Assembly: GCF_030013595.1 (NCBI RefSeq)
Contig: NZ_CP122768.1
Strand: one strand, 5' to 3'
Source of the DNA: Escherichia coli
GTDB taxonomy: Bacteria > Pseudomonadota > Gammaproteobacteria > Enterobacterales > Enterobacteriaceae
Length of the DNA stretch: 64,000 bases
Numbering within the stretch: position 1 is the stretch's first letter; each line of letters begins with the position of its first letter. Of this stretch, positions 37,163 through 58,666 are shown one piece after another. Both the position numbers and the translations under genes were made by a program. The notes under the pieces are model-generated. The model was given only the letters and a program-made list of their open reading frames with translations. It searched no databases and had not been told where the DNA came from.

Positions 37163-37411
37163 GTAGTCACCCTCACTTTTTGTGACAACATTATTAAGAA
37201 GCAAGAAAAGACAAACATTGCGTCAGGTCACTTTTACCCCTGCAAGCGGGAATATTTATCAGCATTACCTTAATGAATATAAAGCTAAGCCAGTAATTCA
37301 CAACAAAGATTGGCGATTCAAGCGGTTTGCCGTAGAATTACCGCCCTCATTAAGAGTCACCAAGGTGGTTAACCACAAACCCCGCATCGGTAAGCCATCC
37401 GTTGCGTTTAC

Positions 37412-38548
37412 ATGGGACAGAGTAAAAAATTGAATAAACAACCGAGTTCGCTTTCACCGCTGGTGCAATTGGCGGGAATTCGCAAATGCTTTGATGGTAA
37501 AGAGGTCATTCCCCAGCTGGATCTGACTATCAACAATGGCGAGTTCCTCACGCTGCTTGGCCCTTCTGGCTGCGGTAAAACAACCGTTCTTCGCCTGATT
37601 GCAGGTCTGGAAACTGTTGATTCCGGACGCATCATGCTGGATAACGAGGACATCACCCACGTTCCGGCGGAAAACCGCTATGTGAACACTGTTTTCCAAA
37701 GCTACGCACTTTTCCCCCACATGACCGTGTTCGAAAATGTGGCCTTTGGGTTACGCATGCAAAAAACCCCCGCTGCTGAAATTACGCCCCGCGTGATGGA
37801 AGCCCTGCGGATGGTGCAGCTGGAAACCTTCGCTCAACGCAAACCGCATCAGCTCTCTGGTGGTCAACAGCAACGCGTCGCCATTGCCCGCGCGGTGGTT
37901 AACAAGCCTCGTCTGTTGTTGCTGGATGAGTCGCTCTCAGCGCTGGATTACAAACTGCGCAAGCAAATGCAGAACGAGCTGAAAGCGTTACAGCGTAAGC
38001 TTGGCATTACATTCGTCTTCGTGACTCACGACCAGGAAGAAGCACTCACCATGTCGGACAGGATTGTGGTGATGCGCGATGGTCGCATTGAGCAAGACGG
38101 CACGCCGCGTGAAATCTATGAAGAGCCGAAAAACCTGTTTGTTGCTGGGTTTATTGGCGAAATCAATATGTTTAACGCCACTGTCATCGAACGTCTAGAC
38201 GAGCAGCGCGTACGCGCCAACGTTGAAGGCCGCGAATGTAATATCTACGTTAACTTCGCCGTTGAACCGGGGCAAAAACTGCATGTTCTGCTGCGCCCGG
38301 AAGACTTACGTGTTGAAGAGATTAACGACGACAACCACGCTGAAGGGCTGATTGGTTACGTTCGCGAGCGTAACTACAAAGGCATGACGCTGGAGTCGGT
38401 TGTTGAACTGGAAAATGGCAAGATGGTGATGGTCAGCGAATTCTTCAATGAAGACGATCCTGACTTTGACCACTCTCTCGACCAAAAAATGGCCATTAAT
38501 TGGGTAGAAAGCTGGGAGGTCGTACTGGCTGATGAAGAACACAAGTAA
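37412..38548 (+). CDS. potA: spermidine/putrescine ABC transporter ATPase
   Basis: 378 aa, Walker [10 protein letters not shown] and ABC signature LSGGQQQRV. Confidence 0.97.
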
Positions 38549-53216: not shown

Positions 53217-53604
53217 AACGTTTACTCGGTCGTTCCGGTGCAGCAGGTGTATTTCTCCCGGGCTCTCCACGCGCAAGGGTGATGGTAATCACCCCCTGAC
53301 CCGCAGCGCCTGACTCATCCCAGCCGGGATCGACTACCTGATAGGGTTCGCCGTGGATCATGACCCTGTCATATTTTTTCAGACCGGCGGCCCATGCGCT
53401 CCGGGTAAATAACACGGGCGCAGTATCACGAATTTCGCCGCTGCCAGTGTTCATCCCGGTGTTATCTGCCGGGGCATCAAAAACGGCACGGATTTTTCTT
53501 TCCGTGCCGCCCGGATATATGCTGATTTCCGTCCCCATCGTATCCAGGATGATGTCATCCGCATCACTCATGGCCTGATCGAACAGATTATCGAACATCA
53601 TCAC
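53197..53604 (-). CDS. head-tail joining protein (lambda FII-like)
   Basis: N-terminus MMMFDNLFDQAMSDADDI resembles lambda FII (MADFDNLFDAAIARADETI). Confidence 0.7.
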   Translation of the reverse strand: MMMFDNLFDQAMSDADDIILDTMGTEISIYPGGTERKIRAVFDAPADNTGMNTGSGEIRDTAPVLFTRSAWAAGLKKYDRVMIHGEPYQVVDPGWDESGAAGQGVITITLARGEPGRNTPAAPERPSKRYGSQRA

Positions 53605-53966
53605 TCCCGGATTTTTTCTGCCAGACCGTCTGCCAGCAACGCGGGAACTGTGGCTTCATTAACCAGCACAACACTGGAGGCCCGGGCAAACATCAACATT
53701 TTTCCCGTCACAGCATCACAGGCTGGCATATGCGCCGTTTTCAGCATACGCACCCGGGCGAGTCCCTGCTCAGAATGCATTCCGTCGCCGGATGCATCGT
53801 TGCCCACCTCTTCCTTCCCCGTCTCCTCCCCATCGAATCCAGCGGCCTCCTCCTCCCATTCCGCCAGACGCTGCTCAAGATCGGCTTTTGAACCTGAAAT
53901 ATCTGCTTCACGCCCCAGAATCACTGCCAGTTCCTGCAAACGTTCAGTCATCTGCTCTTTTGTCAT
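53601..53966 (-). CDS. DNA packaging protein (lambda FI-like)
   Basis: Met at 53966 with GGGAGAG RBS; MTKEQMTERLQELAVILGRE resembles lambda FI (MTKDELIARLRSLGEQLNRD). Confidence 0.7.
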   Translation of the reverse strand: MTKEQMTERLQELAVILGREADISGSKADLEQRLAEWEEEAAGFDGEETGKEEVGNDASGDGMHSEQGLARVRMLKTAHMPACDAVTGKMLMFARASSVVLVNEATVPALLADGLAEKIRE

Positions 53967-54016
53967 CACATCTCTCCCGTGCGCTAAAGAAAAAGGCGGG
54001 AATATCCCGCCCTGTC

Positions 54017-55045
54017 TTATTTCACCTGAACCACCACAAACGCATCCGGATCCGGCAGCACCATCAACGGCGCAGACTGCGTCATTGTATATTCGCAACC
54101 AGGATCCCCCACTTCCTCCCAGTGTTTCGGATAACGAATCGCAGAGGTGATCCCTTCACTCAGCGCCTGATTATCCTGGATTGCGCCATAGCAACGGACG
54201 CCCTCCGCCTGAGTGTTTCCCAGAATCAGTGTACCTTCCGGCAGATAACGCTGTTCATCCCCGTTTTCGTCAACATACGTTGTCTTCGCCACCACGACAG
54301 CCAGATCGCCGTACCAGCCCTTAAAGGAAACCACGGAACCCAGGTCTTTCAGTGCGGTTTCCAGCTCAGATTTGGAGCCACGGCGGGTATCCAGTTTTTC
54401 ACGGAACAGTTTAAAACCGTTCAGCATACGCCAGACCGTGCCGTCCATAATCGCGATATTGATGGTACCGGAAGCAAAATCGCAGTACGCATCAAGATCA
54501 TGCGTCGGATCAAAGGTGTCAGCATTCTGCTTTGACCATTCGCGTCCGCCAGCCTGCGTAATGTTATTGGCGGCAGAACGCCCAAAATCCACTTCCACCG
54601 TCTCAAACTGCTCGCCGCTCATAGTGTATTTACCCTGCAGAACAGCACTGACTGCCTGCATTTCTTCCACCTGCACAATCGCCTGCTCTTCCTGTTTCAG
54701 GTTGTCCGTCAGAATACGCAGACGGCGGTAAGCCGGGTCATTAAGGCGGGCCGGATCTTCCCCCGGAAGACGTTCTACAGCCTGCTGATAATCAAAGCGG
54801 TGTTTTGGTTTTACATAACCGGGACGTAACACGCGGGTTTCACCACCACGGCTGCGCAGCACTTTGCCTGACACCACCGGAGACACATACGCCGCAACCG
54901 GTGTTTTGCCGGTAATTTTATCCAGCATGACTTCCTGAGTATGGAAAGTGATCGTGCGACGAAAGAACAGCTCAAGAAACAGCGCACGAAATTTCACTTT
55001 CTGCTCGGTGTACCCGAGTAACTGACGCGTGGTAAATAACCCCAT
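54017..55045 (-). CDS. major capsid protein (lambda gpE family)
   Basis: 342 aa; extended similarity to recalled lambda gpE (YTMSGEQF, SAPLMVLPDPD). Confidence 0.9.
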   Translation of the reverse strand: MGLFTTRQLLGYTEQKVKFRALFLELFFRRTITFHTQEVMLDKITGKTPVAAYVSPVVSGKVLRSRGGETRVLRPGYVKPKHRFDYQQAVERLPGEDPARLNDPAYRRLRILTDNLKQEEQAIVQVEEMQAVSAVLQGKYTMSGEQFETVEVDFGRSAANNITQAGGREWSKQNADTFDPTHDLDAYCDFASGTINIAIMDGTVWRMLNGFKLFREKLDTRRGSKSELETALKDLGSVVSFKGWYGDLAVVVAKTTYVDENGDEQRYLPEGTLILGNTQAEGVRCYGAIQDNQALSEGITSAIRYPKHWEEVGDPGCEYTMTQSAPLMVLPDPDAFVVVQVK

Positions 55046-55114: not shown

Positions 55115-55450
55115 TCAGGCGTGGCTGATGGCACTTCCCACAAATGCGTTGGCTTTTTTCACCGCATCCACCGAACCAGGCCAGACCAGCGACTCAGTGG
55201 CAAACGTACCGCTTTTGTAGTACGTCAGCATGGGCTCGGTCCCGGCAAGCGCCAGAGCCAGCACACCCACAGCCGTTCCGGCTTTCTGACCATCCCAGAC
55301 AACCAGTTTTCCGGTGGCGTCATCCACCATCAGTGGCGTCAGTGCAGGTGTGGCAGCACTGATACCACTGGTGGCTGTTGCGGTATGCGCCGGATCGCTT
55401 CCGGCAAAAATGCGCGCATCTGCACGCTTTTCCGTGGTGGTTTTAATCAT
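55115..55450 (-). CDS. head decoration protein (lambda gpD family)
   Basis: 111 aa immediately upstream of major capsid. Confidence 0.85.
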   Translation of the reverse strand: MIKTTTEKRADARIFAGSDPAHTATATSGISAATPALTPLMVDDATGKLVVWDGQKAGTAVGVLALALAGTEPMLTYYKSGTFATESLVWPGSVDAVKKANAFVGSAISHA

Positions 55451-55488: not shown

Positions 55489-57105
55489 TTACGGCATACT
55501 CATCAGCAGGTCTTCCTCACCGCGCCCGGCAGTTCCGCCACCGGAAACCGCACTGGCAGCATGCTGTGCCATAAAGCGATCAAAAAGTGTTTCCTGTGAC
55601 GGTTGCGATGCCGCCGGCGCGGCTGCCAGCAGCGTTTTCGCCTGCGCCACCGTCATTCCCGGTTGTTCTGTCAGTGCCTGTGCAAGTTGCTCGCGCCCTT
55701 TTGCCTCCGGCAGCGCCATAATCTGATCGCCGACACTTGCAGAACCAGCAACCGGTGCCGCCGCCAGTAACGTTTTGGCCTGGTCAACGGTCATTCCCGG
55801 CTGTTCAGCCAGCGCCTGCGCGAGTTGTTCACGCCCTTTTGCTTCCGGTAACGCCATAATCTGATCGCCTGTGCCTGCAGCACCAGCAGCAGGGGCTGCC
55901 GCCAGAAACGCTTTCGCCTGCTCCACCGTCATCCCCGGCTGACCTGCCAGCATCTGTGCCAGTTGCTCACGCCCCTTTGCTTCCGGCAGCCCCATAATCT
56001 GATCGCCCGTGCTGTCAGTACCGGCAACCGGCGCAGCTGCAAGCAACGTTTTCGCCTGCTCAACCGTCATTCCTGGCTGACCTGCCAGCATTTGCGCCAG
56101 TTGCTCGCGCCCTTTCGCCTCCTGACAATTCAGGATCCCCATCACGCGCTGATTTTCCTGGGCCACCGCTTCAGCAACGGTGAGATTTTTAACAGTCATT
56201 GCATTCTCCTTCGTAACAGAGTCATTCAGTACAGAAACCATCACTTCAACGGCATCTGCAGCATTAATCAGTTGATCAGCCAGGCCTGCATCAATGCCTG
56301 CCTGACCGTCATAAACGGCAGCCTCGGTATTCATCACCGCCTCTGAACTCAGCCCCGTATAAAGCGCCACCTTGTCGACAAACATCCGGCGGGCCTCATC
56401 AATACGGCGCTGAAAATCTGCACGCACACCTGCCGGCAATGCCTGAATACTGTTGCCGTCAACCTTATGCTGCCCGGAGTAAATCAGCGTGATGTCCACC
56501 CCTTCCTGTGCCAGTTGTTTCTCGTAACTGGTGTGCGCCATCATCACGCCAATCGAACCAATTTTTGCCGTCTGCGTGACCAGCCGACGGGTACAGGCTG
56601 CCGCCAGCAACATGGCGGCTGAACAGGCCATGTCATTACACAGCGCCCACACGGGCTTCTGTTCCCGCAGACGGTAAATCATGTCAGCACAGTCAAACGC
56701 CCCGGCAGCCTGACCGCCCGGGCTGTCGATATCCAGCAAAATGCCGCGCACATCCGGATCATTCACCGCCATCTGAAGGCGGGCCGTCAGGCCGTCATAG
56801 CCAGTCATGCCGGAGTAAGGCCGCAGGGTACCCAGTTTATGCACCAGCGTGCCGCTCACCGGAAGAATGGCGATGCCATTCTTCACCTGGTAACTCTTTG
56901 CCGGACGCTGACCGCCCGCCATATAGTCAGTCACAGCCAGTTGCATACCATCAGCATCAAGCTGAACAGCCTGCTGAGGAACGGCAAGGCTGCCGGCACC
57001 CATCTCTTTACCCAGCGCGCAAAAGAAAACCCGCGCATAGGCGGGTTCCAGTAAAAGCGGCTCATTAAATGCCATGGCGGCAATATGCGATAAATTACGA
57101 CGCAT
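55489..57105 (-). CDS. head maturation protease/scaffold (S49/ClpP-like, gpC-like) with repeat-expanded C-terminus
   Basis: 538 aa; N-terminal peptidase domain, four 46-aa tandem repeats in C-terminal half. Confidence 0.85.
   Translation of the reverse strand: MRRNLSHIAAMAFNEPLLLEPAYARVFFCALGKEMGAGSLAVPQQAVQLDADGMQLAVTDYMAGGQRPAKSYQVKNGIAILPVSGTLVHKLGTLRPYSGMTGYDGLTARLQMAVNDPDVRGILLDIDSPGGQAAGAFDCADMIYRLREQKPVWALCNDMACSAAMLLAAACTRRLVTQTAKIGSIGVMMAHTSYEKQLAQEGVDITLIYSGQHKVDGNSIQALPAGVRADFQRRIDEARRMFVDKVALYTGLSSEAVMNTEAAVYDGQAGIDAGLADQLINAADAVEVMVSVLNDSVTKENAMTVKNLTVAEAVAQENQRVMGILNCQEAKGREQLAQMLAGQPGMTVEQAKTLLAAAPVAGTDSTGDQIMGLPEAKGREQLAQMLAGQPGMTVEQAKAFLAAAPAAGAAGTGDQIMALPEAKGREQLAQALAEQPGMTVDQAKTLLAAAPVAGSASVGDQIMALPEAKGREQLAQALTEQPGMTVAQAKTLLAAAPAASQPSQETLFDRFMAQHAASAVSGGGTAGRGEEDLLMSMP
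55590..56145 (-). repeat. four in-frame tandem repeats of 138 bp inside the protease/scaffold gene
   Basis: Motif CG(T/C)TTTCGCCTG... recurs at 55633, 55771, 55909, 56047 (period exactly 138); protein repeat LPEAKGREQLAQ.LA.QPGMTV.QAK.LLAAAP.AG. Confidence 0.85.
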
Positions 57106-58666
57106 CGACTTTTTCTCCCGTTGTCTGTCGGATCTGCTGCTGAAACGTGTCCTTTATCCAGATGGGGCGGGGAAGACCCGCTGCCTGTCGCTCCTGGCTT
57201 TCACGCAGTTGCTGGCGGAAAATCTCCTGATAGTCATCGCCCATCAGGGCCAGCTCTTTCTCATACGTGCTTAAACCACCTTCAATACGCATCACCGCTT
57301 CCTGCACTTCCTTAAGGCCATCAATCGCCATGCGACCGGCACCAATCCACTCGGCACGACACCATCCGGAACGGGCCTCCCAGAATGAAAAACGGGATTT
57401 CGGCGGGCGGATCACACCGCGAATAAGTGCTTCCTCCAGCCAGCAGGCAAACATCTGTGATGCCAGTCGACTGGCCACAAATTTTCGTTTGCCCATAAAA
57501 TACCGCCACGACTCATTGGCGGATGCCCTGGCACTGGAATAACTGACCTGTGAATAATCACGGGAAAGCTGTTCATAGGACACCCCCAGTCCGGCAGCGA
57601 TGTAACGTAACAGCGCCTTTTCCAGTTCAGAGAAACCATTATCTGCATTCTGCGCTGTCTGCAGATTCAGTGAATCCCCCGGATAAAGATGCGGAATACG
57701 GACCCCGCCCAGCTTTACCGTATTGGTGGCGTAATAACGCGCGTAGCCTTTCATGATGGTGTTCAGGGGATTTTTACCGCCATCTCCCACCCCGGCGATA
57801 TATTCAAATGCTTTTTCCGAATCCAGCGTGGATTCAATCGTCGCGGCATACATCGCCCGCACCACCGCCGACTGCAGTTGCGTGGCCTGCAGTGTGTCGA
57901 GCATCTTGAGGCGCTCCATGACAGAATAAAACTGGTTGGCCCCGCGCGTCTGTCCGTCCTCCTGCGGCTGAAACACATGGATCATTCCCGGTCGCCCGGA
58001 GGGCAGCGTCGCCGCAATCCGCGTCCAGTTGCTGACACCGTAACCGGGCCAGTCATCTTCCTGAACATGGTAGGCCAGTGCTTTTCCGTACCGGTTGATT
58101 TCCACCCCGGCACGCATAAAACGATCGCCGGTACCATAACCGGGTGTACTGACACGTTTCGGGCTGATGGTTTTGAATTTCGTCCGGAATAATGACGTGG
58201 ATTCCGTATCCCATACGGGCTGGACAAAAATTTCACCGTTAAATGTATGAACGCCCACCCCTTCACGAATAAATTCGGTAAACGAGCGACGCCCCTCCAC
58301 ATCCATCGAACCAAACACCGGATCGCAGAATTCCATCCACGCCGCCTCCACATCTTCAATAAAGGCATGTGAATCGGCTTCCGACATCCCCAGCCAGCGC
58401 CAGTTGGGCCGGTAACTCAGACGAAACATGTGTCCGACGATATGGTCTTTATGAATTTCAACGGCGTTTGCGGCAATACCGTTATTGCGGACCAGATCAT
58501 CCGCACGGGCGTTACCCAGCTGAATGGAAGGTAAGAGCGCCACGTCGGCACTTTCCGGTGCAGGCAGCCATTCCGCAAGCTGCCCGCCAAATCCGGTACC
58601 CCCTCCGGAATACCCCATACTCTGCCGCAGTGGCTGCCCGTGAAGATCCACCAGTTCCCCGTTCAC
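57095..58666 (-). CDS. portal protein (lambda gpB family)
   Basis: 523 aa; synteny. Confidence 0.9.
   Translation of the reverse strand: MNGELVDLHGQPLRQSMGYSGGGTGFGGQLAEWLPAPESADVALLPSIQLGNARADDLVRNNGIAANAVEIHKDHIVGHMFRLSYRPNWRWLGMSEADSHAFIEDVEAAWMEFCDPVFGSMDVEGRRSFTEFIREGVGVHTFNGEIFVQPVWDTESTSLFRTKFKTISPKRVSTPGYGTGDRFMRAGVEINRYGKALAYHVQEDDWPGYGVSNWTRIAATLPSGRPGMIHVFQPQEDGQTRGANQFYSVMERLKMLDTLQATQLQSAVVRAMYAATIESTLDSEKAFEYIAGVGDGGKNPLNTIMKGYARYYATNTVKLGGVRIPHLYPGDSLNLQTAQNADNGFSELEKALLRYIAAGLGVSYEQLSRDYSQVSYSSARASANESWRYFMGKRKFVASRLASQMFACWLEEALIRGVIRPPKSRFSFWEARSGWCRAEWIGAGRMAIDGLKEVQEAVMRIEGGLSTYEKELALMGDDYQEIFRQQLRESQERQAAGLPRPIWIKDTFQQQIRQTTGEKVDAS

Follow-up and report, generated by a model that had tools for sequence, protein, structure and literature searches.

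A lambda-type head protease/scaffold gene in a mosaic prophage

The window analyzed here, a 64,000-nt stretch of Escherichia coli contig NZ_CP122768.1 that is 100% identical to E. coli ETEC6335, carries a prophage in which a 538-residue gene contains a tandem repeat in its C-terminal part (Table 1). The gene (55489-57105) is 100% identical to an annotated CDS in NZ_CP122588 (L011, 20489-22105), for which PGAP supplies only the name "S49 family peptidase." Searched against the PHROGs, its product matched phrog_53, head maturation protease (E = 2e-216). The residues S162 and K214, which lie 52 positions apart, are invariant in an alignment of 62 homologues, i.e., the gene encodes an S49 serine protease domain with a Ser-Lys dyad, as is characteristic of proteases of the lambda gpC/Nu3 type. 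Moreover, the full-length AlphaFold (AF2) model led to the B. subtilis SppA structures 4kwb/3rst in a Foldseek search (E = 3e-11). The surrounding gene order, namely, portal (B), C/Nu3, decoration (D), capsid (E), and FI, is that of a lambda-type head module, as judged from both PHROG matches and the PGAP annotation of the identical region. The gene is thus a lambda gpC-type head protease/scaffold gene of an E. coli prophage, and the assignment made in the preliminary description of this DNA is borne out by PF01343, phrog_53, and the SppA fold.

Table 1. Features of the head protease/scaffold locus (window coordinates)
Feature	Position	Strand	Basis or remark
Portal protein (gpB-like), upstream neighbour, overlapping the start of the protease gene	57095..58666	-	phrog_21, E 1e-179; PGAP "phage portal protein"
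gpC-like head maturation protease/scaffold gene, 538 aa	55489..57105	-	ORF listing; phrog_53; Pfam Peptidase_S49
S49 (SppA-type) peptidase domain, aa 146-289	56239..56670	-	Pfam PF01343, E 3.8e-33
Shine-Dalgarno AAGGAG, 6 nt upstream of internal ATG	56206..56211	-	Read from sequence
Predicted nested in-frame scaffolding protein (Nu3/phage 21 gp6 homologue), 236 aa, from M303	55489..56199	-	SD + ATG; alignment with phage 21 gene 6
Repeat unit 1, aa 321-366	56008..56145	-	Unit HMM; orthologue of lambda's single unit
Repeat unit 2, aa 367-412	55870..56007	-	Unit HMM; duplicated or converted in relatives
Repeat unit 3, aa 413-458	55732..55869	-	Unit HMM
Repeat unit 4, aa 459-504	55594..55731	-	Unit HMM
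Non-repeated C-terminal tail, aa 505-538	55492..55593	-	Conserved F508, F511, M512, terminal LLMSMP
Head decoration protein (gpD-like), downstream neighbour	55115..55450	-	phrog_49; PGAP
Major capsid protein (gpE-like, 342 aa)	54017..55045	-	phrog_2353/6020/29; PGAP

The prophage is a mosaic (~35000-64000, L011) with lambda-type head genes (terminase, W, portal, C, D, E, FI, and FII), and this head module adjoins a P2-type contractile tail (sheath, tube, baseplate V/W/J/I, X, and D). At its left end, the prophage meets a truncated FimD/PapC usher pseudogene by folK (window ~37405-37938), and next to the tail fibre genes are one gene of the ash family and one of the Rha family.

Downstream of the decoration gene, the FI frame continues without a stop for 63 codons ahead of the FI ATG (53966), overlapping the capsid gene at its 3' end (extended FI ORF, 53601-54098; capsid ORF, 54017-55045; both on the minus strand). 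The 481-position profile phrog_2353 is split between the two, with the capsid ORF matching positions 1-314 and the extended FI ORF matching positions 317-481, which hints at fused or frameshifted capsid-FI members. A capsid-FI frameshift fusion was rejected as a candidate given that lambda and phage 21 do not share the long open FI frame (22 and 17 codons, respectively); the hint is probably an artefact of ORF calling or of the PHROG members.

An old and diverged four-unit array

Tandem Repeats Finder reported a single array at 55614-56122 (period, 138; 3.7 copies; 80% matches; 0% indels; score, 596). With an HMM for the repeat unit, four 138-nt units were mapped to the minus strand of the window at 55594-56145, all in frame and without indels, which upholds the earlier report of four in-frame copies with an exact 138-bp period at 55590-56145. 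Base identity within the array is 0.74 at a lag of 138 nt, 0.71 at 276, and 0.64 at 414, against a background of 0.31 +/- 0.03 at other in-frame lags (z ~15) and of 0.29 at lag 138 in the rest of the gene; the repeat is thus far beyond chance.

The copies had also been described as near-identical, and this part of the description does not hold. Pairwise identity between units is only 64-79% for DNA and 65-85% for protein, and the longest exact run common to any two units is 8-18 nt; unit 1 is the most divergent copy, above all in its first 8 residues. Compared copy against copy, the unit cores give dN/dS values of 0.02-0.15 with dS values of 0.7-1.8, placing synonymous sites near saturation; this argues that each copy has been maintained by selection and that the duplications are old. 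With such low identity and such short exact runs, this particular allele is expected to be a poor substrate for homologous recombination. The array in this window is in an old, diverged, and stable four-unit state.

It could be asked whether the periodicity is instead a property of the DNA (protein-binding, packaging, or regulatory repeats) or a product of genome assembly. One phage 21 record does annotate pattern-matched CII-binding motifs in the homologous gene; however, conservation between the units resides at codon positions 1 and 2 (70-88% identity), with position 3 only 44-61% identical, and the period is exactly divisible by 3, without any indels. We therefore rejected a DNA-level function on account of the diverged third codon positions, and an assembly artefact on account of the presence of the array in >100 complete genomes, leaving this pair of explanations exceedingly improbable.

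A predicted nested scaffold product

An internal ATG, that of M303, is located at 56199-56197, 18 codons upstream of repeat unit 1. M303 is invariant in an eight-sequence alignment, the ATG and a purine-rich SD are conserved across 8 relatives despite differences in the residues encoded, and M303 falls where the start of phage 21 gene 6, with its RBS, is annotated (M81255, OL657228). This conserved internal SD-ATG pair predicts a nested 236-residue product having the C-terminal third in common with the protease. By sequence evidence only, the locus would thus have the lambda gpC/Nu3 arrangement of an in-frame internal start yielding a scaffold that is co-terminal with the protease. The predicted scaffold would comprise an 18-residue leader, four units (184 residues, 78%), and a 34-residue tail, for which helices are predicted at 504-515 and 529-535 in the AF2 model. 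As in lambda, the Nu3 core unit (I..L.C.EA.GRE...LA..PGMTV..A...LAAAP), detected with the unit HMM, is followed by the C-terminal tail. Since the units lie downstream of M303, the repeats expand the scaffolding domain common to both products and not the catalytic part of the protease. The preliminary description had overlooked this location within a nested Nu3-like product, as well as the fact that a triplication was already annotated in phage 21.

The lambda protease is C, and the essential scaffold is Nu3, which overlaps C in frame; Nu3 interacts with itself and with C, B, and E, and its degradation precedes DNA packaging (PMC3224144, PMC10695390).

GenBank J02459 (L001, 2633-3238) annotates lambda nu3 from M239, giving a product of 201 residues without a clear SD. 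This differs from the lambda ATG that is homologous to the nested start proposed here (window 56197-56199), which is gpC M309 with AGGAGG 5 nt upstream and which would give a 131-residue product. As a counterpoint to our prediction, the nested start is thus not uniformly annotated across the gpC/Nu3 family; as judged from these sequences, the annotated lambda Nu3 start may itself be neither the homologous nor the true one. A nested scaffold CDS is also absent from the PGAP annotation of NZ_CP122588 and of >100 E. coli genomes carrying the gene, and annotators have reason to add it.

Structure of, and constraint on, the 46-residue module

In the full-length AF2 model (mean pLDDT, 64.7), each unit forms three short helices (pLDDT ~76-83), with inter-unit linkers of pLDDT < 50 at residues 361-364, 406-410, 453-455, and 499-505; as modelled, the units would be small helical modules in a beads-on-a-string arrangement. 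When a unit was modelled in isolation, the result was moderate (pLDDT 64), and no significant fold neighbour was found for that model. No family model for the repeat unit was found in Pfam or NCBIfam, in which only weak and spurious matches were obtained, and a PDB sequence search with the 236-residue scaffold found no solved relative, the only match being a nonsignificant one to bL12 (E = 0.11). In that match, which pairs window 55732-55950 (the unit 3 region) with 8rdw_D, the motif GMTV.QAK.LLAAAP is weakly like the bL12 C-terminal GLGLKEAKDLVESAP; the resemblance of the unit motif to the bL12 C-terminal domain is probably due to chance.

Across diverged phages, 10 unit residues are invariant (I4, A10, G12, E14, A17, L20, M26, A31, L35, and A37) and a further 7 are nearly so (E9, R13, L16, A21, P24, V28, and A38), defining the motif I-x4-EAxGRE-xLA-xxLA-xxP-x-M-xV-xxA-xxxL-xAA. 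These data bear on the suggestion that the array is a flexible spacer or molecular ruler, in which only total length would matter and the unit sequence would have no binding role; length could, for example, set the distance from an N-terminal oligomerization helix to a C-terminal capsid-binding tail. Consistent with such a role, (i) lambda has a low-complexity spacer of ~54 residues at the place where the window gene has its extra units, (ii) the nested products are broadly similar in size, i.e., 200 residues in phage 21, 201 (annotated) or 131 (homologous ATG) in lambda, and 236 here, and (iii) nearly identical capsid proteins tolerate three to five units (see below). However, the unit cores are strongly conserved as protein (dN/dS, 0.02-0.15) while synonymous sites are saturated, and a mere spacer would not need a motif that stays invariant or nearly so across diverged phages. 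We thus consider a purely length-setting array unlikely.

The linkers at residues 360-366, 406-412, and 452-458 (~56008-56028, 55870-55890, and 55732-55752) contain Ala-Gly, in the contexts APVA-GTDS, APAA-GAAG, and APVA-GSAS, and the processing site of the lambda portal in J02459 likewise falls between Ala22 and Gly23. By this analogy, the Ala-Gly linkers could, speculatively, be candidate cleavage sites for the head protease.

Unit number and turnover among relatives

A profile of the unit retrieved 994 representative proteins at E <= 1e-3 among 1.84 billion. Within the best 150 of these, a single unit is present in 57 of the 58 full-length proteins, at a median of 46 residues from the C-terminus, the sole exception being an enterobacterial representative with three units. 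The best 120 homologues of the gene product are distributed differently: three units (n = 75; a group that includes phage 21, Gifsy, and other Salmonella types), four (n = 41), five (n = 3), or one (n = 1). Lambda gpC, included in the latter scan for reference, adds another single-unit case, and the five-unit variants are known from two draft assemblies. Judged from the sequences sampled, these distributions show a single unit to be the ancestral state.

Unit 1 of the window is 62% identical to the lambda unit at the nucleotide level, versus 52-53% for units 2-4, and 70% identical to unit 1 of phage 21; these identities mark unit 1 as orthologous throughout the family. Among deposited phages, the nearest are phage 21-like (68-69.5% amino acid identity), the match being limited to the first 444 residues, and the homologue search did not find the four-unit allele in any deposited phage.

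Several relatives record gains, losses of distinctness, or rearrangements of units. A five-unit protein (P0003) carries the four units of the window array and, in addition, a second copy of unit 2; its units 2 and 3 are 99% identical at the nucleotide level, with 117 nt of uninterrupted identity. In a four-unit protein (P0036), units 2 and 3 are 99% identical at the nucleotide level, each being 93% like unit 2 of the window. Two further arrays (P0040 and P0043) are homogenized, with 90-96% nucleotide identity within the array versus 77-86% to the window, and units of phage 21 are 53-61% identical to one another at the nucleotide level (47-53% for amino acids). The phage 21 lineage shows an independent gain (P0108; L009, 551 residues), in which the extra unit is a hybrid with an 82-nt exact run in common with its neighbour, and in an E. 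coli protein of a phage 21-like lineage (P0044, 657 residues), a 156-residue block including units 1 and 2 is duplicated. Indels of 9 nt also occur in the linkers of relatives. Capsid proteins 96-98% identical to that of the window are paired with three-, four-, and five-unit scaffolds; there is thus no tight link between unit number and the shell protein.

The E. coli lineage of the window is uniform by comparison. Length is constant to <=4 nt in all 60 of the best 60 E. coli genome matches (96.8-100% identity), and, over the complete E. coli records of the lineage with 86-100% identity, the four-unit span is kept in 103 of 106. The array thus turns over in the wider family, yet is stable in this E. 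coli lineage.

These observations divide the earlier proposal that such repeats recombine easily, so that copy number may vary between isolates. Copy number does vary among homologues (one, three, four, or five units), as the comparison of repeat number suggested in that description has revealed, and the count is not invariant; by contrast, the present allele is a poor recombination substrate, and the lineage around it keeps four units. In its strong form, in which the copies would be near-identical, recombine readily, and be hypervariable in number between isolates carrying the prophage, the proposal could draw on those differences among homologues, on the adjacent units in some relatives that are 99% identical with exact runs of 117-118 nt and would be good substrates for recombination, and on the 9-nt linker indels. 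The window copies, at 64-79% identity with no more than 18 nt of uninterrupted identity, together with the constancy of length in 60/60 best matches and of the four-unit span in 103/106 records, make it improbable for this prophage.

Variation of this kind might alternatively be driven by host immunity that senses prohead protease/scaffold domains (e.g., Type I CBASS), with the array serving as an evasion surface. There is a precedent in T1-like phages, whose protease-scaffold fusions allow escape from Type I CBASS through substitutions in the scaffold domain, a domain that is by itself enough to trigger CBASS toxicity (bioRxiv 10.1101/2023.05.21.541620). In addition, the repeats have diverged more quickly than the protease domain: relative to a three-unit allele (P0027), the units are 82-88% identical, compared with 92.5% for the N-terminal 960 nt. 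However, selection on the units is purifying and not diversifying, the CBASS precedent comes from another phage family, and homogenization by gene conversion explains the pattern without recourse to immunity. We regard immune evasion as very unlikely to account for the array.

Proposed role of the array

Our preferred explanation, to which we assign a probability of roughly 70%, is that a 46-residue core module of the lambda Nu3-type scaffolding domain has been amplified four-fold in tandem, with a role in head assembly as follows. By comparison with relatives, the array arose by in-register unequal recombination or slippage, and each module has since been kept functional by selection. The protease and the nested scaffold would co-assemble with the gpE-like capsid protein via their common C-terminal domain, as is suggested by lambda genetics and biochemistry. 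Inside the prohead, the four modules would either provide multivalent interactions or set length, after which the protease would destroy the scaffold. Because lambda Nu3 is degraded by the protease, the repeats should be absent from mature heads. Expression of the 236-residue product, the partners of the module, and its removal from heads are thus projected from lambda. The idea of a capsid-binding module likewise rests on analogy, given that the isolated-unit model is moderate and has no significant structural neighbour.

A bolder extension, which we hold only tentatively and think unlikely on balance, is that unit number and sequence act as an evolvable "valency dial," in which the modules would be independent capsid- or portal-binding sites. 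If so, gain, loss, or conversion of modules could tune the kinetics or fidelity of assembly or allow escape from host scaffold sensors, and the natural series of one, three, four, and five units with near-identical capsids could be used to probe multivalency in T=7 shell assembly.

The mechanism of lambda-type scaffolds (Nu3) is still poorly understood in structural terms. Our analysis defines an uncatalogued 46-residue scaffold module, present as one copy in lambda and most relatives and as three to five copies in enterobacterial lambdoid heads, for which a natural allelic series is available to test scaffold valency or length.

Comparison with known systems

The likeness to P22 gp8-type scaffolds is conceptual only, i.e., a helical hairpin with conserved charges in a flexible and transient scaffold, and no sequence or fold match to the unit was found in gp8 or other stand-alone scaffolds. 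P22 gp8 has a single C-terminal, coat-binding domain (helix-loop-helix), is recycled instead of being proteolysed, and does not lie within a protease gene.

Lambda C (439 residues) and Nu3 are closer, with an S49 Ser/Lys protease, a nested in-frame C-terminal scaffold, and the same order of head genes. Lambda gpC is 57% identical in amino acids to the window protein in the 8-sequence alignment and 55% in the 62-sequence alignment. It has exactly one unit, at residues 361-406 by the unit HMM, followed by the conserved C-terminal tail as here; the low-complexity spacer that precedes its unit is absent from the window protein. The preliminary description had put the window protein at ~100 residues beyond lambda gpC, and the measured excess is +99 (538 versus 439), a net value that results from three extra 46-residue units (138 residues) minus the ~54-residue spacer.

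The gpC homologues of Gifsy-1 and other Salmonella lambdoid prophages (~500-507 residues) have the same module in the same gene, with three units and 58-66% amino acid identity. They belong to siphovirus prophages, unlike the window, whose head module is combined with a P2-like contractile tail.

Genes 5/6 of phage 21 (M81255, OL657228), the homologues of gpC and Nu3, lie, as here, between the portal and decoration/capsid genes and encode an S49 protease of ~68% amino acid identity with the internal SD and ATG of a nested scaffold. There, too, a unit of ~46 residues is repeated in tandem right after the nested start, the arrangement typical of Tri-type genes. The phage 21 Tri1, Tri, and Tri3 boxes (residues 324-358, 371-407, and 418-455) coincide with units found by the HMM, and the 1990s record M81255 annotates them in gene 6 as "function unknown" in its GenBank feature table. 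Phage 21 has three units, which are more diverged (53-61% nucleotide identity) than the four in the window (64-79%), and only unit 1 is clearly orthologous between the two. A strict Tri-box gene has exactly three units, and the gene described here has four; it is thus a four-unit relative of the phage 21 Tri-box genes and not a strict Tri-box gene. Ultimately, the repeat phenomenon was already known from the phage 21 annotation, and the four-unit member, largely ordinary in this light, extends that family while overturning nothing.
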